Shown: piece after piece, positions 6,036 to 64,000 of the stretch
How positions within the stretch are numbered: the stretch's first letter is position 1
How the letters are laid out: each line of letters begins with the position of its first letter
Assembly (NCBI GenBank): GCA_030324005.1
Contig: JARDVH010000106.1
Span: 54,426,341 to 54,490,340 of the forward strand
DNA from: Negaprion brevirostris
Taxonomy: Eukaryota
Direction: 5' to 3'
Length of the DNA: 64,000 bases
Translations under genes and position numbers: made by a program
The notes under the pieces: generated by a model
Seen by the model: the letters and a program-made list of their open reading frames with translations, nothing else
Told to the model about the DNA's origin: nothing
Databases searched by the model: none

Positions 6036-8320
6036 GCATTGATGTTCTGTTTCAATTGCCGCTCTATTTGTGCTCAGCAAAGGATTAAACATAATCTGAT
6101 TTTCTCTCATATTGAAAGTAAATCTGTTAGAATCAGCTGAATGAGGTTTGCTAGTTTATTTCAGCGCTGAAAATGTCACATATGTGACAGTTCAAGAACA
6201 AACACAGAAAGAGAAGGACAGTGAGAGGTTGCAAACTGCTGATGATAGAAGGTAAAATCTGGTAAAAAGCCAGCTTTAGTCATTTACATTTCCACTAAGT
6301 TATGAAACTTTTACCTCACAGTGCAATGCAAATCATTTGGAAATATTTATTTCCAGTTTCAAACCATCAGAGGCAAAGTGATAACTTTAGTGCAGTGTCC
6401 GTTGTATGTCGTCATTACCTCAACATACCATTGGTGTTGAACAAGAAGGTGCCGTTTTGCAGGAAAATCTTGTATATGGCAAAAGAGGCCTGGCGTGAAA
6501 ATTAAAATAACAAAAGAACTTGGTTAAATCTAATTGCAAAGCAAGTTGTAACTACAGGTCAGGAAATGAACTTATTCCTCAGATCAAAACTTCGAGGCGA
6601 ATATCAGTCATTTCCTTTTTGAACACATAAAACTTAGACTCGCCTCATATATTGTCCTTTCAGAAATGAAGATCCTGAACGAATTCAACAGGATACTTTC
6701 TTGTCATTTCTGGCAGGATATGGGGAAGACGAGGTGATTAACCACCGTGTAACTGGCGCTCGGACTTCATTGCAGCTCATTGTGTTCCTGACTGGATGTG
6801 ATTTGTGTTTGTCACACAGTTCGTGATTATCTGATCCAGTGAAGGAGTGGGCTCAAGCCATCTATGGCCTATCCCAGTTCTGTTTGTTTCTAATGAATTT
6901 CAGGGGAAAAAAAAGTATCAATAAATAACTTGAGTGTGATGTGTTTTAATGTGGTGGCCGAGCACTCTAAGATGCAGTGTTAAGATTCCGCAGAAGTGGC
7001 GATGCAAAACCCACCGCTGCCAAAATGCATCTCAATTTTGTCCTTCCCGTTGAAGTCCAACAATTCAGATTGACTAAAGGAGCGTTCACGGTGTTGTATT
7101 TTTTTTTCAGAAATAATGAGGGGTAACAGTGGAGATGTAGTCAGTTGTTGGTGTGAAGAATCTTATGTGGAATGGCTGGGGTTGACACGGTAGAGATCAC
7201 ACACAGGAACACAGGTGGAACAACAGGCTTGCAGACATTGAGTCTGTATTTCCGGCCAAGGAATTAAGGTGGTGGATTGGGATTTTCTAACAGAAGTACA
7301 AAGCCTGGCATGTATGTTTCCCATCACTCCTCATTGCAACTGTGGTTTTACTGAAATTTATTTGAAATGAAATAATGAATAAAGAGATAACTAACTCTCT
7401 CTGTTCAGCTTCCCCGNNNNNNNNNNATTTTGTTTAATTTTTCATTTAATGAAAACCTGCCCCACACCTTCTGTGAAGGGAGAAACAAGGTTAATCTTCA
7501 GGTGGATGAATTTATAAGAGAGCTGGAAATGTCAAAGATGTAAAACTCTGAAGAAGAGTCACATGAAACGCGTGTCAAATAATGCCACTTTCAAGTTGCA
7601 CCTTCTAGCTTTCTGCTCCCCACCTCAGATATCTCCACATCCGTCAAACGTCTCCTACCGAAAAACCCAGCATGCTCCTCACTCAATTGATAATGATACA
7701 CTTACTCCAGACTATGCACAACAATTGTAATTTTGCTGAATAGCAGCAGTGTAATATTTGCAATAATTCTGCTTCTGGCATTCTCATGTATCAACTGATG
7801 GATAAACATTATTTCCACAAAGTCCACTAAATTCACACTTATAAGCAGATTGTTATTTTTTAATTATAAAATGACATTAATTAATGCATGGAAATATGTA
7901 CAACATTGTTTAACTTTATTCTTAAGGGAGTGGGTATGGCCATTTCTTTTCCATTCTTGCATTTTTATATCTGTTTTCAGTTTGCCCAGCTCATTGACAA
8001 ACAAAATGGCATGTCTCATGGCCTTTTCCCAGGACGTTGCCCAATATCCCCAGAACTGGCTGCCAGGTGATGCCATTGATGACTTTTACCATCCCAGACC
8101 CCCTCCCCAACCCAGTATTTTTCCCCTTCTGTCTCAGCGTTACCTGTTGCACAGCTCAACCTTGTTTAACAGTGTCTGAATTGGGAATGCAAATTTGCAT
8201 CCATTCCCACTCTGTGACACTGAACAATAATTTGATGATGCTCAGTCCCAGTAGCGACCCAATCTGAACACATAAATAAGGGCCTAATGTGGCAACAAAT
8301 ACAGTAAGACCCAAACAATA

Positions 8321-53683: not shown

Positions 53684-54317
53684 ACTTTACAGCTCTTTGC
53701 ATTAAATTTCACTTGTAAAATGAAGCTCTGTCCCCTGACTTGATATTTCTTTTCTGTGATTTCTAAATCTACTGTCCCTCCTGGTTTGGTATGACCTGCA
53801 CAATTTGAGCTCTGTGTACAGAGTTTACAAATTCATATCATTTTTGTAAATTAGCAACAGTAGGAGCGACCAATGGATAGTTTGCAGTTCCTAAAAATTG
53901 AATAAATCAGATTATTTAAATCGGTGTATTTACACAGTTCCAGAAAAAATTGAGCCTGAATAAAAATTGAATGAATGTATCAGATNNNNNNNNNNNNNNN
54001 NNNNNNNNNNNNNNNNNNNNNNNNNNNNNNNNNNNNNNNNNNNNNNNNNNNNNNNNNNNNNNNNNNNNNNNNNNNNNNNNNNNNNTGTTGGGAATTCATC
54101 CAAAATCCAGTCATTGCATGGCCCCCTTTGAACTCATTCAAGGAGATTAATTTTAGCGCATGTTTAAAAATAATAATCCTACTTTGAAGAGAAACACATC
54201 ATACGGGTTTAAGAATAATTATCTAAACTATCATGAAATTTAATTTCCTCATAATTCTTTCTCTGAACCAAGTAATATTCCAATATGAGTTTGCTGCATC
54301 TATATTTGTTCTTTTAG

Positions 54318-54568
54318 GATCTCCATACAGAGATAAAATCACAATCGCTATCCTGCAGCTCCAGGAGGAAGGAAAACTCCACATGATGAAAGAGAAATGG
54401 TGGCGTGGAAACGGCTGCCCGGAAGAGGATAACAAAGAAGCAAGTGCCCTCGGTGTTGAAAACATTGGAGGAATCTTTATCGTGCTTGCTGCTGGGCTGG
54501 TTCTCTCGGTCTTTGTTGCCATTGGTGAATTTGTATACAAGTCCAGAAGAAACAGTGATGTTGAACAG
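54318..54568 (+). CDS. GRIK1: GRIK1 S2/M4 exon: (G)[83 protein letters not shown]
   Basis: Acceptor ttttag, donor CAG|gtatgt; 251 bp; ends in phase 0 at the known C-terminal alternative-splicing junction (..DVEQ). Confidence 0.97.
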
Positions 54569-57500
54569 GTATGTCGGTGTGTTTTTGAAGGTAACAGTGT
54601 AAACGGTGCAATTAAGCATGACTGCCATGGGGTCTGTTAATAAACAAAATCAAATTTAAACTCAATGCAAGATACAGATTTGGCCACAGCCGTTGAGTAA
54701 CTTTCTAAAATATATAAATATACAGCAGAAAGAACTGGAACTAGAAAGTAACCACGTAACATGGCGAACTAATTGGCCCAGCTAGAAGATCTTAGAATGC
54801 AGAATTGAAGAGTGCTGCAACTTGACATTTTGCCTGCAAATCTATTCATGGGGCAAAACCCATTCACAGGTCAGATATGAAAAAGAGTTTGCATATCAGT
54901 GAAGTTGAGTTAAATTAATGTGTCTTAACTTATAATGGTGGTTCAAATTGGCCTCCTGTGCCAGATTAGTAGACAGTAGTTTGGTTTGCAAACGCATAGA
55001 TATGTTGTGAGGTGGAATTTAGAATGAGAAGTTTCATTTTACTGTACAGTACTTAATATGGTATCTTTATATAAAATGCAGTGATGTCTTGGGTTAGTAG
55101 CAGGACTTTGTGAAGCTAGGCTGCTCTAAAATAGTTTCTATTCAGTGAGAGGAAAGAAATAAGTTTCAACAATCTCACTTTTTGTGGGAAACAGTTGAAA
55201 AAAACCACTGTTGAATATTTTTTAAGTTTAAACTATTTTGAGCCTTTTAAATAATAACCAGAGTACAGGATTTATTTTTACACTTTTCCTTAAGTAAATA
55301 TTCATTAATCACAGGACTTGGCTGTTTGTTGTTAACAATCACTGAAGCCTCGACTAGAGGGCAGCAATGCTGACCGCAAATGATACTGTAGGTTGGTGGT
55401 GTATAAGTCAACCCAGCGTTTAAGTGCCAAAATGCACATTTAGGCCCCTACTTAGCGCATAGATTTACCCTCCACCCGAGCAACATTCCTCAGCTAATCA
55501 ATGCATGATTAAAGCTATACTTATAATAGGAGTTGGCTTCAATTTTGCAGCTCAGATGTATGTTTAAGATTACAGTCATCCTGTAAGCCAATGTATGAGA
55601 TTATGCAGGTGATGTGGTCATGTTGCCAAGAAGCTACTCAAGAATTTATAACATGCCCACAAAGAGCAGATATTGCAGGTCAGTTGATGATCAGAAATGG
55701 GTCTTCCTGCACCAACACTGCAGTTCACACTTTATGCTCAGCATATAAGTCGACCCCTTTTTTTGGAAGGATTCTTCAGTTATCTTAAGTTCAACTTATA
55801 CATTGCAATCTATGGTAACAAAACTCTGCTTTTGACAGCATTTTCTTTGATTTTGTTAACATTATAATAATATTTTTCTTTGAAAATTAGGGAACAGTAC
55901 TGTCAGAAGACAAGATTCTCTTCTATACGCACTGTCACAATTGATGTTTTTCATCATTTATCCCTATGAAACGTACATGGCCCTTAAAAGAGATGTTTAA
56001 AAGGACTCGAGGTAACCGGTTTGGGGCTCTGCGTACTGTTACCTGCACAGATCCTGGAAATGGGTCTTTTTTCTACTTTAAAACGTACACCTTCTCATAT
56101 ATTGCAGTATTTTTATTGGTTTGCCTTGACTCCAGAAAATAAATGTGTGTGTTCTGTCTATTGTTCACATCTCTCTTTCTTTCTGTCTCATTCACTCACT
56201 CTCTCTCTTTCTGTCTCTGTCTGTCTCACTCCCACCCTGCTCTTTCTCTTACTTACAACTCCAACTTTTTCAACAGGCTTAGCAGAATGGAGAAATGCTT
56301 TTCTTTATGATCCAGAATATGCAGTAAATTAAATGTTAATGGTCTGCACCAAATTGTAATTTTGAATTGTATGGAGAGCAGTGTTCCAAACCACTGTCAT
56401 GTTCTCAAATGATCAAATGAGTAGAATGTTAGCGTCTTTACGATCAGTTAGAAATTCTGCCCAATAGAATATTTATGTATTGCATACATTGTATGTTGCA
56501 ATGCAATTCTAGCAACACATTAACTGCAAATGACGTGAAGCAAAATTTTTCAACTTTTATTTTAAAATCTGGAAGTTCCCAGGCAGTTCTTTCGACCAAC
56601 CCTATTATTGGTAACACAAAATATCCCCAACAATTAGCAGGGCATTGCACTGCCCCAATTTGATGGTAGCAAAGATTGGTGGTCTAACTTAGTGTTGCCA
56701 ACTCGCAATGTGACTGCAGCTAAACATCAGGTTCACCTTTATCAATGTGCAGTGGCACTATGGCTGATGGCAGTGCTCTTTAATGGGGATTCTCAGCAGG
56801 GAGTTGCTGTGATGCCATCAGGTTCTCCAAGCTGCCAATCACATATAAAGGATTTTCACAGAGCCTGCAACAAGAAACTAAAAACTGCAAAATAAAACCT
56901 CTTTAAAAAGTGCTTACATCGAGCAAGTTAAAGTTTGGGATTTAGAATTCATGCAAAAAATTGATTTTAAATTCATTTTAAAAATCAGCTTAAAAATCTA
57001 CTGATTAATTATGTAACAGCATTCCACAATCATTATTTTTTCAGCACCATTTGTTTTTTTCATTAAAAATTATTAATCGCATTGCCCCAAAACGGTTACA
57101 CCTGATTGAAGAAGATGTAACTATTTAAGGAGTTTCAAATGGTGCTGTGAGAATGGGGAAGTTGAAATTCCCTTTATTTCAGTGATACCTGGCTCTGACA
57201 CAAAACAGCTTGTGTCAAACTGTTTGATTGTCTGACTACAATTTCAAGTTGTCATGCTAACCTGCGTAAGTCTCACATCCTGAGGACAAATGATGACAAA
57301 CACTAATGGTTCAACATCAACACTCACCCTGTCCCTGCAAGCTCCAGCCCCTGGTACTCTACAAGGCCAAATTACCATTTCCAAACCCTTTCAGCATCAT
57401 CTAAATGTTAGTACATTGAACGCAAACTATTGTATTTCATTTCCATTATGGGTTTTACTTTCAGAACTGTAGCTTTGAATAGTGCATTCTAATTGAATTA

Positions 57501-57696
57501 TTTTAAAGTGACATTTCTGCAGTATATGGCACTTAGCATGATCACCTGCTTCAATAAAGTGTGTTCATTTACTTCAGTTTTGAGTTAAAGCCACTCATAC
57601 CTTTTGCCTTTGCTGTTTAATTTTCTGTACTTTTGTCATTTTCTTTGCGATTTCTTGTGATTAAAGATATTTCTACAATTTTTTATTGCATGCAAG

Positions 57697-57846
57697 GCCT
57701 TTTGTTTCTTTTATGGATCACAATGTAAGCAAACTCATCCATCCTACTCTACATCTGGAACCACCATTTCCACAGAGTTAGAATGTGGCAAACTAATCCG
57801 GGAGGAGAGGCGATTGCGAACCCAGTCCTCCATCCACACTGTTTAG
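57697..57846 (+). CDS. GRIK1: GRIK1 alternative terminal exon, GluK1d-like: AFCFFYGSQCKQTHPSYSTSGTTISTELECGKLIREERRLRTQSSIHTV*
   Basis: Long T-rich tract, acceptor tgcaag (57695-96), 49 open codons in phase 0 then TAG. Closely matches the recalled human GluK1d tail (AFCFFYGLQCKQTHPTNSTSGTTLSTDLECGKLIREERGIRKQSSVHTV). Not in the ORF track. Confidence 0.92.
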   Translation, partial: AFCFFYGSQCKQTHPSYSTSGTTISTELECGKLIREERRLRTQSSIHTV

Positions 57847-57955
57847 ACAAAGCCGTGAAAGGTTTGTGCATAATGTACTTAAGGTGTTAAAAGGCAGTCG
57901 TGCACATTGTCTTTCAAGGAGTAATATAAAGGGACATCATTGACAAAACAGCTGC

Positions 57956-57961
57956 ATTAAA
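57956..57961 (+). terminator. Possible ATTAAA polyadenylation signal after the GluK1d-like exon
   Basis: Variant hexamer 110 nt after the stop; such hexamers are common by chance in AT-rich DNA. Confidence 0.25.
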
Positions 57962-59721
57962 TAAGTTGGAGTTGATATCCTTAAAGGATTTACTTTAGCA
58001 TTCAAATTAAGCCTCCTAAGATAGTTTGCTCCAACTTTAGAGTAGGACATCATGACAACCCTGATTTATTCTTAATCTGCAGTTAATATGAATTGGGATA
58101 ATTGCATTTTAACCAAAAGTAGTCAACTTAACATATTTCAACTTTTTTTTTGCAAACAGGTAGATGGAGAAGTAAACATAAATTGAAATAATCATCGATT
58201 CAAAGTGCACTCAGTATGTACCCAAGGAGACAATTTGGTCCATCCATTCCATCTTGGCTCTCTGCAGAGCAAACTAGTCAGCTCCATTCCCCCAATCTAT
58301 TCCCATAGCCTGGCAAGTTTATTTCGCTCAAGTGCCAGTGGGCACGACCACCATTTCCGCATAGTTTCTGCTGATCTTCCACTGTAATTACAGAGGTTGA
58401 TGAGGTGAACTCTTGAGGAAATTTCCAGCAAACATGTCTAACAAGTTGCCACTTTACCCCACATGCAATAACCAACTGCAACAAGTTAACACTGCATGTC
58501 CCATTTAATCAGTACTAGTAGCTTTGACAGGGGTACGTTTGAAATGGTTTTTCTTTATACTTTTCATAGTGTTGCTAATATTCCCTGAGCTACTGGCAAT
58601 ACAATATCAGTTAATCTGATGGGAGTTTGAATGGATGGCATAAGTATATACGAACTACAGTCAAAACTACTTGTTGGTTTGCAGTTATTTTCATAATTCT
58701 CTTTCCTTAATCATGAATGATGATGATGACAACATATAACCAGCACATTTCAGTGGAAACTCTCAGCAAATGTGGCCCTTCAAAAACAGAGTGTATCTCT
58801 TTCTTACATAATCATCTTCTGAATTGACGCAAGCTCCGCATAATCTTTTCTTATTGATTTTTCTGCATTTGTTACCTGTCACATTTGTATGAATGTCAGT
58901 GCGAGAAATGAGAATCTCTGTTCCACAGCTCGACAGTTTTCATTATATTGTGCAAAAAAAAAGAGTTGATCCAGACAATTGTTCATTGTGCCCAGATGCA
59001 AGCATGATGTTAAGAACAAGGAGATATCATTCAAAAAGTAATAACATTTTGGAAAAAGGGCAGGCCAGTACAGCATAAATATCAGCACAGTGTTCAAGGG
59101 ATAATTTAGTGTGATTCTGGAAAAAAGAAAAGTAAGCGAGATTGACCTATCTAAAATGGTAGTCTACATCAGGGCTAATTATTCTTTCCTGTTCCTAACA
59201 ATTCTTAAGTTTTTGATTTTTAATTTATATCAAATTCTGGATTTAAAAGATGCAAAAAAAAAGATGGAAGGCTTTATCTGTCATTCAGTGCTATCAATCA
59301 GCCAGTATTTTCAGTGTCTGACACTTGATTACAATTTTGTATCACGTGATTTTTAGATCAAAATACTAGCTTAAGTAGTAATGCTTGAAAGGCTAAAGAA
59401 CTCCAAGACAAGATTTTTTCCCAAATGACTTCAATCCATCAAGTGCATAGAATAATACCATTTTATCCTCTTTTTACCACCATCGTTCTGATGGGAAAAA
59501 TGTTGGGTACACAAGAGAATAATCTGCATTTGAAGTGGGACATCGATGTCTAATTGTCTTTGAGTTGAAATTCCTGACCCCTTAAGAATACAAATGCTAA
59601 AATGCTTCGCTGATCTCTATGTCTGTCCATTTAGGTTATCAATAGTTCACTGTGAAACTTAAAAGGTAATAGTGCATTCATCAGAGTCACATCAAAATTT
59701 TCACACTTTGATGGGAATCGT

Positions 59722-59850
59722 AGCCGGTATTCTCCAGTCTCATATTCACTACTGCTGGTGAGAATGGAGAATTTGGGCCTTAGCCAAATCTCTGTTCATT
59801 GCAGCAGGATTGGAAAATCCCAATGCGTGCGAGGTTGGAGAATTTCAGCC
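59722..59850. mobile_element. MITE-like element (129 bp)
   Basis: agccggtattctccagtctc ... gaggttggagaatttcagcc; flanks cgt/agt. Confidence 0.6.
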
Positions 59851-59984
59851 AGTATTAATCTCAAGTGACAAAGTATCAGCACCTCAACACTGGAGAGTTT
59901 CCATGACTCGGGAGCACAGTGATGACCTTTACCAGAGTTTCCACCAGAGAGTTTGACAAAAATCAACAATGTTAATTCTAGAAG

Positions 59985-60290
59985 AGCTAGGTTGATTGTG
60001 GACAAGTCCCCAGGACCGGATGGAATGCATCCAAGGCTTCTGAAAGAAATGGCGGAGGTGATAGTGGATGCCTTGGTGGTTATTTTCCAAACGTCGCTGG
60101 ATTCCGGGGAAGTGNNNNNNNNNNNNNNNNNNNNNNNNNNNNNNNNNNNNNNNNNNNNNNNNNNNNNNNNNNNNNNNNNNNNNNNNNNNNNNNNNNNNNN
60201 NNNNNNNNNNNNNNCATGATCTTATTGAATGGCGGGGCAGGCTCGAAGGGCTAGATGGCCTACTCCTGTTCCTATTTCTTATGTTCTTAT
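59985..60290 (+). mobile_element. CR1-type LINE, collapsed across a gap
   Basis: DKSPGPDGMHPRLLKEMAE before the gap; 3' tail after the gap nearly identical to 43938-44010. Confidence 0.9.
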
Positions 60291-61410
60291 TTCTAATTGA
60301 ACAGTTGCAACCCATTGTACAAGCAGACAAACAAGGTTCCATAGAAGAATAGAAGTGATCCTAGATTTTCAATGTATTGCCTTCAAAACTGAATAGTGAG
60401 GGAGTTGGTTAGTGCAGTCCTGACACTGCTGAAATAGAAGGGAGAAGTTTCAGTTCAAAGCTGAACAAATTTCAATATTAACAGATCTGAGGAAATCCAG
60501 TGTGTTCAATTATAAAGCGACAAAATCCCCCAACACAGATATTCACACAAAAAAAAATGCAAGTTTTCTATTTAAATCAGCCTCTTTCATGACCTTAAAA
60601 CATTCAAAAGCACTTTATGGCCAATTACATACTTCTGAAATGTAATCGCTGTAGTAACGGTAGCTTCAGGTAGATAGGGAAGGGATGACCTTGAAGTCTA
60701 CTCCAAAAATTAAATTCAAAGCTATTTAAACCATTCATATAAGATAAACCAAAAATGGCTGAATCAAACTGATTCGGAAGATTATATTCACAGAATAGAT
60801 TTATTCTACAGTGTGCCTCAACAAGATGTGACTCTTTCTCCATACTGCAATCTAGAAGCCATGGAAAGATATTAGTTCATGAGGATTGTTTTAGGAGTCA
60901 GTTCCAGTGATTGTTTGGGCAGAAAATATTTAAGTATGATAGACATTAAACTGTAAGATAAAATGCCTGCTTATGAGATTTCATGTATCAACATATCACA
61001 ACGCAGCAGTGTTAATCTGTTAAACTGTAGGTTGCATGCACCTCAGCTACTCAAATTCATCAGCGTGTACAATGTCATCAGATCCGGTAAGGTTTCAAGA
61101 TTAAGAGGAAACTTAATTCTGCCCATTGGCCAGAGCAGTACTCAGCTGAAGCATCAGTCATCAATGGGATACATTTTAGATCATGGCTCCAAGGTATATA
61201 GGGATGTTTAATGTAAATTTTGAAATGAAATTTTTACTCTCTACAGGCAAAGGAACTAAAGTCAGGGCTTCTTGGATGATTTAGGAGATAGAGTTTATAA
61301 TGGAACAAAAACAAAAGAGGTCGCATAATGCATTTCAGGTGAATTCTAGCTAGAATCAGGCCGAGACAATAGGTTGAAACGGGAAGTGAAGAGAAAAATA
61401 TGACCAGTCT

Positions 61411-61947
61411 CTCAGCACTTGGGACACAGGTTCATTTCCGGCCTCAGTTGACTGAGTCTGTGGAGTTTGCATGCTCTCCCCATGTCTGCGTGGATTTCAT
61501 AGAATCACAGAAACCCTTCAGTGCAGAGGGAGGCCATTCAGCCCATCAAGTCTGCACCGTTAACAATCCACCCAGGCACTATCCCTGTAGCCCCACATGT
61601 TTACCCTGCTATTCCCCCAACACTAAGGGGCAATTTAGCATGATCAATCAACCTAACCCACACACCTTTGGAGTGTGGGAACAGCCGGATGAAACACATG
61701 CAGACATGAGGAGAATGTGTAAACTCCACACAGACAGTGACCCAAGCCCAGGAATTGAACCCGGGTCCCTGGCACTGTGTTGTCCGTTTCCTTCATGTAC
61801 TCCAGTTTCTTCCCACACCCCAAAGGTGTGCAGGTTAAGTTGATTGGTCATGCTAAATTGCCCCTTACTGTCAGGGGAATAGCAGGGTAAATACATGGGG
61901 TTACAAGGATAATGCCTGGGTGGGATTGTTGTAGGGATTCTATGATT
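61411..61947. mobile_element. Plus-strand HE1/V-SINE containing an inverted copy (61498-61780)
   Basis: The outer SINE is split within its V domain by an antisense copy. Confidence 0.85.
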
Positions 61948-62039
61948 TTATGAAAAAGGAAATATGGGAAAACAATAGAAGCCATAAATCTTCTAACAGC
62001 ATGATTGTAAAAGGTTATTAAGGGAGGGATATTTATTTA

Positions 62040-63590
62040 GAGGCACAGAGCAATGCTAGAATATTTATGAGTACTTTATATCAGTGTTTATTAAGGAAGA
62101 GAATGCTGACAAAACATTAGAAGCAGAGATGTGGTGGAGATAATGGATGGGATAAAAATTGACAGAAACTTTATTCTGAAAATGCTGGCTATGTTTGAGA
62201 GAATATGTTGCCTAGTCCAGATAGTTTGCATCCCAGGATACTAAAGAAAATGGGGGCGGAGATAACATAAGGACTGGCCATGATTTTCCATTCTTGCTGA
62301 GATACAGAGTAGTGCCAGCGGATTAGGGATTGGCTAATGTTCAAGAAAGGGTTAAAGGACATTCCTCATAACTACAGGCCAGTTAGCTTAATATTACTGG
62401 TGGGTAAGGTTTAGCAACACTAATCAGAAAAAATTAACAAGTACTTGGAGAGGTTTGAGTTAATCCAGGCAAGACAGCACGGATGCAGTGGATAAATCTA
62501 TATGGATTTTAGAAAACAATTATAAAACATCACAAACAGGCTGGTTCACAAAATTGAAGCTTAAGATATAGGAGGGTCAGTGTCAACTTGGATAAAAATT
62601 TGGCTTAATGACATAAAACAGCGAGGTAAATGATTGATTTTCAGCTGGATGATAGTAGACAGTGGTGTCCTCCATAAGTCAGTGCTAGGACCACTGTTTT
62701 TTTGATGTATAATAAATGTCTTGGACATTGGAATACAGCGTAAAATTTCAAAGCTTGCTGATGATATCCAACTTGTAGGTGTGACAAGCTTTAAGGATGA
62801 TACCAATTGATTCAACAGGACATAGATAGGCTGGTAAAATGGGCAGCTAAGTGGCAGTTGAAATTTAGTAGAGAGAAGTGTCAGATGATGCAAGTTGGCA
62901 AAAGGAATGGAGAAAGGCATTTTGTATTTAGTGGCATATTTATAGTATGTAGAGATAGAAGAGCTTTGGAGCTCATGTGCATTGTTCTTAGTGGTGGGCA
63001 GGAGAGTCGTTATCTAAACATATGGGATCATAATAAATAGAAGTATTGAAAACAAAAGTAGGGAATCTGTGCTGAACCTTTCTGAAGCTCTGCTCAGGCA
63101 TAATTGATGTGTTGCTTCCAATTCTACTCACCACAATTTAGAAAATACATGGAGGCTGCAAAGGAAATTTACCAGAATGGCTCCAAGGATGGGAGAAATT
63201 AATTAAAAGCTTAGTTTAAAGAAGCTGGTGGCATAGGAGATTGAGAGGAGATTTGATAGCAGTGTAGAAGATGATAATGAGGTTAGATAAGGTAGAAAAA
63301 TAAAAGGAGTTCTCACTAGCTGCTGGTATGAGGTAAGAGGAAACCAGTTCAAGATTTTAGCAAAAATGGGAGAATGGAAGGAAAACCTTTTCATGCAACA
63401 AATGGCAATGATGTGGAATTCGCTGCCTATGAGGGTGGAAGTGGAGGTGATGAATGATTTCAAAAGGGAATTGGATAGTCACGAGGGAAATAACCTTGCA
63501 GGACTACATGGATAGTGGGGGCTGGGACTGATTGGTTTACTTTTCATGACATGGACTTAATCGGCCAAATGACCTCCTGCTGTGCTATAA
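62040..63590 (+). mobile_element. Decayed CR1-type LINE
   Basis: NYRPVSL, SKLADDI, LVKWAAKWQLKFSREKC and tail ggccaaatgacctcctgctgtgct. Confidence 0.85.
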
Positions 63591-64000
63591 TAACTGGCAT
63601 ATTTTATGGATGGTTTCAATGGTAAGTAGTGACTCTAAATATAAAAGCTGATTGGATTTACTTATGCAAACTGGACATCTTTCAGCATGTTAAAAATAAA
63701 ATAATTTATATATATTTCAAGGGCAGCAAAAGTCCATCAAGTTCATATGTTATCAGCCCATCACTAACAAATTTACTGCCATATAACACCTCACTGTGCT
63801 ACCTCCTTTCTGACTGGAGGAAAGCAGCTTTTGCACAGGTCAACTGCAGNNNNNNNNNNNNNNNNNNNNNNNNNNNNNNNNNNNNNNNNNNNNNNNNNNN
63901 NNNNNNNNNNNNNNNNNNNNNNNNNNNNNNNNNNNNNNNNNNNNNNNNNTCTCACAATCCAAAATGCTCAGATTATTTCCCCAATTGAGATTGGATTCAG

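Follow-up and report, generated by a model that had tools for sequence, protein, structure and literature searches.

C-terminal variants of KAR subunits other than GluK1d differ in ER exit and in PDZ binding, the ET-x-hydrophobic end of GluK1b and GluK1c binds PSD-95, and GluK1b has a basic retention motif (PMC4194049). GluK1d is usually described as found in humans only, as the preliminary description of the locus studied here had stated; PMC4194049 (2014), PMC10706347 (2023) and PMC13221535 (2026) all say so. The first of these declines discussion of the isoform on human-only grounds, and the last prints the human-only variant as 'GluK2d' within its list of GluK1 variants. Three further papers merely list the d isoform (PMC9916396, PMC6420428, PMC11540303).

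The human isoform appears as 'GRIK1 (d)' in PMC8257547. In human brain, its supplementary file 2 gives 54 reads for d and 1610 for b (3% of b); the human brain table lists the junction from the M4 exon to d, and no junction at the expected coordinate of a d donor, i.e. none from d to b.

Several other systems bear comparison. The GluK2b and GluK2c cassettes of GRIK2 resemble the d exon described below in that a cassette before the last canonical exon alters the C-terminus; GluK2b is a minor form, about 8% (PMC8257547, section 16). GCAUG upstream of an exon is associated with repression by RBFOX, but this pattern is only moderate and some GCAUGs are unbound (PMC11874969). In nonsense-mediated decay, a rule of 50-55 nt relates the stop codon to the last junction (PMC1854916). 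Here we analyse a stretch of 64 kb from the shark Negaprion brevirostris (hereafter the window), in which GRIK1 carries a counterpart of the human d exon.

Identity of the d exon

The features of the locus are collected in Table 1. An open frame of 49 codons and TAG, ending in QSSIHTV, indeed stands right behind an AG, and it is entered in phase 0, as the M4 exon closes on a complete codon. Such a frame is common by itself and follows 284 of the 3936 AG sites in the window (7%). Unlike the open frame alone, the match to the human tail is not a product of chance: 40 of 49 residues are identical to P0018 (NP_000821.1 or GRIK1_HUMAN, GRIK1 isoform 1) at equal length and with no gaps (E 5.7e-18), in agreement with the preliminary description. 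In a protein search with the d tail, 22 of 25 candidates were matches (best E 2e-22).

The host gene is GRIK1. The M4 exon shares 79 of 83 residues with human GRIK1; the paralogs score 85% and 67%, lie on other contigs and have different last exons. In frame behind the M4 exon follows the 49-residue tail, from AFCFFYG to HTV. We call it GluK1d because two details of PMC8257547 agree with it: the isoD junction sequence continues into AFCFFY, and the cited 'GluK1-d A870V' concerns residue 870, the first d-tail residue of the 918-aa human protein. By its sequence, the exon at 57697-57846 is the shark GluK1d exon of GRIK1, a known human isoform that is already present in gene models of other sharks.

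The codon at 57697-57699 is the site of human A870V, which PMC8257547 treats as SNP rs363503 or possible C-to-U editing. Alanine occupies this position in most tails and threonine in two rays.

A search of PDB sequences with the d tail returned one chance match (YY1, E 0.53) and no solved d tail. AlphaFold gives it a mean pLDDT of 49, with no residue reaching 70 and one low-confidence helix at 27-43, and this model was set aside. Elsewhere in this genome no d-like exon was found, only two weak matches with stops. The last introns of its GRIK2-like and GRIK3-like genes (100 of 4286 and 0 of 3402 bases are N) contain neither a d-like exon nor a match to the start of the GluK2b exon, and comparison of d with the 20 bases at either end of the GRIK2 cassettes showed no sequence likeness.

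Table 1. Features of the shark GRIK1 locus; positions refer to the window unless locus L014 is named.
Feature	Position	Strand	Basis or remark
GRIK1 exon common to all tails (M4 exon)	54318..54568	+	end of S2, M4, proximal tail; splice sites, contigs in 4/4 runs
Donor GT of M4 exon	54569	+	phase 0
Second acceptor and 17-codon tail ('e')	55891..55944	+	joint 54568>55891, translation
TGCATG (RBFOX motif)	57687..57692	+	-10..-5 of d acceptor; shark vs L016
Acceptor AG of d exon, A at -3	57695..57696	+	sequence; joint in X1
GluK1d coding part	57697..57846	+	49 codons and TAG; translation, homology, dN/dS
Untranslated 15 bases of d exon	57847..57861	+	X1 and X6 contigs end here, join b exon
Donor GT behind d exon	57862-57863	+	sequence, contig ends
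First half of 12.5-kb d-to-b intron	57862..64000	+	GluK1b last exon lies beyond the window
GluK1b last exon, coding part	L014:6388-6543		12.5 kb downstream of d; would be 3' UTR once d is included

Transcript structure

Transcript data consisted of contigs from runs of relatives of N. brevirostris, presumed to be RNA, of unspecified tissue; the GT..AG joints in these contigs show splicing. Of 14 runs listed, X1, X2, X3, X6 and X9 were used, and four runs were aligned to 54100-60100. The junction from 54568 to 57697 was looked for, as had been suggested, and is present as a GT..AG joint in one of four runs (X1), in a single contig whose shorter side of 27 letters falls below the 31-letter bar for a bridge.

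The supposed terminal nature of the exon did not survive this comparison. Both contigs that cover the 3´ end of d (1192 nt in X1 and 778 nt in X6) stop at 57861 and resume in the GluK1b exon. At the b-exon acceptor start X1 and X6 contigs of the same length and depth, and their loose ends of 165 and 124 letters match the end of the d exon. The join of d to b thus comes from two runs of two studies, and it makes d a cassette of 165 nt, 57697-57861. The joint is absent from the DNA-like run X9, which crosses the d-to-b intron. Runs X2 and X3 lack contigs over the d exon, and X2 also lacks them over the b exon; both runs are uninformative on d use. Read-through of the d stop into b, conceivable as 165 is a multiple of three, was considered and rejected, since a second in-frame stop comes next.

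The X1 contig ends at L014:7413, within the b exon and 20 nt past the AATAAA at 7393, and the d-to-b junction is therefore likely to be the last one. The d stop lies 15 nt before the donor (16 nt before a similar donor in L016, the non-shark DNA copy described below), whereas in a poison exon the distance from stop to last junction would exceed 50-55 nt. With the stop this close to a probable last junction, d mRNA would escape decay.

In X1 and X6, d runs unbranched into b with no direct path from M4 to b visible, and d is thus not minor in these two runs; the missing path has limited meaning, since rare forms drop out of contigs and sharks do have annotated b isoforms. Human GluK1d has the same gene, donor, phase and length, but in human brain data the d exon is minor and its junction with M4 is the only one listed, which implies a last exon, whereas in shark it is spliced on to b in two contigs of two. 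As the human table lacks the d-to-b junction, the cassette form may be absent from mammals, which may use d as a last exon instead. The intron before d also differs in length (about 1348 nt in human and 3128 nt in N. brevirostris).

Human GRIK1 has GluK1c and GluK1a exons about 400 nt upstream of the b exon. In shark, a motif scan of L014:5400-6387 with up to 4 mismatches found neither a GluK1c-like nor a GluK1a-like exon, a weak negative since 435 bases of the intron are N, and no protein in the d-tail comparison set matches the c and a motifs. GluK1c and GluK1a may be younger than b and d.

Between M4 and d lies another acceptor. The joint 54568>55891 occurs in four of four runs from three studies and is the only one listed from the M4 donor in X2, X3 and X6. 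Cover continues past 55891 for up to 1.8 kb, in X1 at least to 57724, into the d exon. AATAAA/ATTAAA hexamers stand at 56138, 56328, 56891, 57062, 57553 and 57660. The 17-residue 'e' tail is absent from all proteins in the d-tail comparison set. The 55891 form may be a short-tail isoform of sharks, or it may be decay-prone if the donor at 57862 is used. Further downstream, 59750-60100 is a repeat, probably a shark SINE, over which the contig depths of three runs each add up to thousands.

Conservation of the tail

One of two loci found among 56 candidate stretches, L016, provided a single non-shark DNA copy of the exon, with a bird/turtle-type protein; the other, L017, proved to be a chance match and was set aside. 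Shark and L016 are identical at 120 of 150 bases, and the mismatches fall 8, 1 and 21 on the three codon positions (Fisher p 8e-9; bootstrap pN/pS 0.05-0.30). Only three of them lie in the first 24 bases. For this one sequence pair dN is 0.087 and dS 1.03, a ratio of 0.085. The excess at third positions and the low dN/dS indicate that purifying selection acts on the d protein; together with tail conservation across vertebrates, they bear out the constraint that had been postulated.

The comparison with the b tail depends on distance. Against five tetrapods, the shark d tail retains 40-42 of 49 residues (82-86%) and the b tail 25-29 of 51 (49-57%), which makes it unlikely that the d tail is noise. 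In comparison with three further sharks and rays, b is the better kept of the two, with 40-47/49 for d and 48-50/51 for b (b: 49/51 to Stegostoma, 50/51 to Heterodontus). The b tail ends in ETIT in sharks and rays, and in ETMA, ETVT or ETIA in the tetrapods examined; judging by sequence, the final Thr of the shark/ray tail may weaken PDZ binding.

Among 20 distinct d tails, 22 of 49 positions are invariant. When the most diverged tails are included, what is left of the core is AFxFFYG with portions of the S/T-rich stretch. The cysteines, mentioned in the preliminary description of a tail with conserved function, do not form such a core, as each of C3, C10 and C30 is lost in some lineage: C3 is replaced by S in Heterodontus and by G in Dromiciops, C10 is missing from the tails of Ascaphus, Nanorana, pika and platypus and from the teleost-type tails (see below), and C30, constant in all 20 distinct tails, is S in teleost-type ones. 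H47 and T48 are invariant in the same 20 tails, which were picked by their N-terminus, and the diverged tails of platypus and Dromiciops still end in VHTV.

Distribution among vertebrates

Named proteins with a d tail, mostly computed gene models, come from sharks, rays, sturgeon, lungfish, axolotl, frogs, tortoise, lizards, birds, platypus, a marsupial and many placentals; among the matches listed, the names include neither a lamprey nor a chimaera nor any invertebrate. Presence in cartilaginous and bony fishes places the d exon before their split, and the proposed ancient gnathostome isoform, found from sharks and rays to mammals, is thus upheld. Close counterparts are the annotated 'X2/X4' isoforms of GRIK1 in sharks and rays, for example in Stegostoma (XP_059506338.1), Heterodontus (XP_067896624.1) and Hypanus (XP_059824099.1), which have the same tail (40-47/49) and at the protein level no difference of kind. 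Many non-mammalian gene models already contain the exon, which lowers its novelty.

A shortened and diverged d form occurs in the teleost Coryphaenoides (P0117, partial). One identical tail of 41 residues is shared by four proteins (P0122-P0124 and P0126), which we call teleost-type by likeness only; it has an acidic end and lacks C10, C30 and HTV. Its identity in four proteins suggests that it is constrained in its own right. The search that yielded these tails gave 16 matches, namely 10 d tails, 2 unrelated sequences and 4 long multi-stretch ones, which were left out.

The statement that the isoform is found only in humans is contradicted both by gene models across jawed vertebrates and by junction reads of rodents. 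Supplementary file 4 of PMC8257547 gives d and b reads of 7/136 in rat, 8/230 in mouse, 3/75 in chimpanzee and 5/331 in macaque, and the rodent queries share their 20 exon bases with those of primates. Evidence against the human-only label was therefore on record in 2021, though only in a supplement. Section 16 of the main text leaves the rodent d reads unmentioned; figure S13D and Table 2 of the paper may state the matter more openly. Of the two causes the preliminary description had offered for the apparent absence in rodents, missed detection stands, in the form of missed notice, and by the junction reads loss does not.

The d acceptor

The strong pyrimidine tract described for the exon was not confirmed: positions -20 to -4 contain 65% pyrimidines, compared with 76% for the M4 exon and 82% for the b exon, and A stands at -3 where both of these have T. 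A richer tract (75%) lies 37-97 nt upstream of the d exon, behind another AG. The d acceptor (AAG) is weak.

Within this acceptor stands TGCATG. The final 11 intron bases before d are identical in shark and L016, and the remaining intron does not align. Frames reading into the d exon carry A-C-K before it in four of five cases, as TGCATG predicts, and the fifth resembles a gene-model joint; the frame of P0118 has A-C-K too. The teleost-type frames have A-C-K at the acceptor in none of four. A conserved UGCAUG just upstream, as in RBFOX-repressed exons, is thus present in shark and L016 and is not in register in the four teleost-type frames. The d exon resembles RBFOX-repressed exons in position and conservation of the motif, though binding and repression are here only predicted. 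Among titles listed from the open-licence literature, no report of RBFOX repression of the d exon was evident.

A second site deserves mention. In Bos, Gekko, Turdus and Pontoporia, the exon of the gene models begins 9 codons later, at the position of 57724 (27 nt into the d exon). There L016 has CAG behind a T-rich stretch (L016:2028) and shark has CAA. From sequence, a second amniote acceptor that drops AFCFFYG together with C3 is possible.

Possible function and regulation

The reading we lean towards is that d is a stop-bearing GRIK1 cassette of 165 nt between the M4 and GluK1b exons, which likely serves to swap a trafficking or anchoring tail and is likely damped by RBFOX. The joins of M4 to d and of d to b are seen in contigs of related organisms. 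Upon inclusion of d, the mRNA would escape decay and yield a full receptor, with the b exon left as 3´ UTR. The receptor would then lose two elements of the b tail, its PDZ end (ET-x-hydrophobic) and its basic retention motif, and gain from the d tail AFCFFYG next to the membrane, a stretch rich in S/T and, except in teleosts, the HTV end.

It is rather probable, by analogy, that the d tail alters trafficking or anchoring of the receptor; d receptors would presumably travel or be held differently, with unchanged gating. The open-licence literature yielded no functional study of the tail. A class I PDZ ligand has Ser or Thr at -2 from its end. The d tail has His at this position and the b tail has Thr.

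Whether RBFOX damps inclusion of d through the UGCAUG in the weak acceptor appears to us an evenly balanced question. The protein, bound inside the AAG acceptor, might block its use in RBFOX-rich neurons. Such damping would explain why, in bulk data from mammalian brain, the d junction reaches only 1.5-5% of that of b, and also its neglect. Against it, d is not minor in X1 and X6, and repression is not evident there if those samples are neural.

What the tail is conserved for can also be imagined differently. Its job might be membrane anchoring through palmitoylated cysteines, close to the original idea of a function of the Cys-containing tail; we judge this unlikely, for C3, C10 and C30 are each replaced in some lineages, and C3 is present in most tails, not all. 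Still, AFCFFYG is the best-kept block, teleost-type tails included, and C3 corresponds in position to the cysteine near the beginning of the last exon of GluK2a (R-S-F-C in the GRIK2-like gene of this shark), which we take to be C858 of GluK2. Palmitoylation of GluK2 occurs at C858 and C871 (PMC4194049).

Somewhat less likely still is that the HTV end acts as a phospho-switch, binds either 14-3-3 (mode III) or a PDZ domain of atypical type, and so drives ER exit. The constancy of H47 and T48 and the VHTV of platypus and Dromiciops speak for such a switch, as does the association of 14-3-3 with GluK5 and GluK2a in forward traffic (PMC4194049). Mode III, R-x-x-pS/pT-x-COOH (PMC4760375), is matched only in part, however: T-x-COOH is present, with Ser instead of Arg at -3, and teleost-type tails do without HTV altogether. 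A predicted complex of the unphosphorylated d tail with a fragment of this genome's 14-3-3 reached a median of 0.12, compared with a mark of 0.34, and counts neither way.

We consider it improbable that the exon matters as RNA, in which case it would reduce the output of GluK1b as a regulatory or poison exon and its peptide would be incidental. The conserved acceptor motif, the few mismatches in the first 24 bases and the low abundance in mammalian brain would suit this, and the neighbouring 55891 acceptor would give a decay-prone form if the d donor is used (stop 1917 nt upstream). But 21 of 30 mismatches sit at third positions with dN/dS far below one, the d stop lies 15-16 nt before the donor, and Rfam has no match in 54000-60000. 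Finally, that the isoform is ancient but decayed in rodents, which would leave the human-only label half right, is hardly tenable: no rodent-named d protein stands among the 15 listed of 568 main-cluster members, but rat and mouse show d reads in shares like those of human and chimpanzee, and the rodent query bases equal the primate ones.

Implications

To return to the cassette with a swapped tail, a bolder version of it, which we hold to be doubtful though worth stating, would make d an ancestral, RBFOX-gated and decay-proof cassette of all jawed vertebrates. In some cell types, such as those poor in RBFOX, or in entire shark tissues, it would be a main form of GluK1. Its tail would be held tighter than that of b because it binds a putative conserved partner, and kainate-receptor research would have ignored it for three decades under a wrong label. 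The open-licence literature contained no paper on conservation, cassette use or an RBFOX motif of the d exon.

Taken together, what is gained is the correction of a label and an isoform open to testing, rather than a system of a new kind. Two concrete handles on the regulation of d are offered by its conserved acceptor motif and by the donor downstream, and since rat and mouse splice the exon, its function can be tested in standard models.
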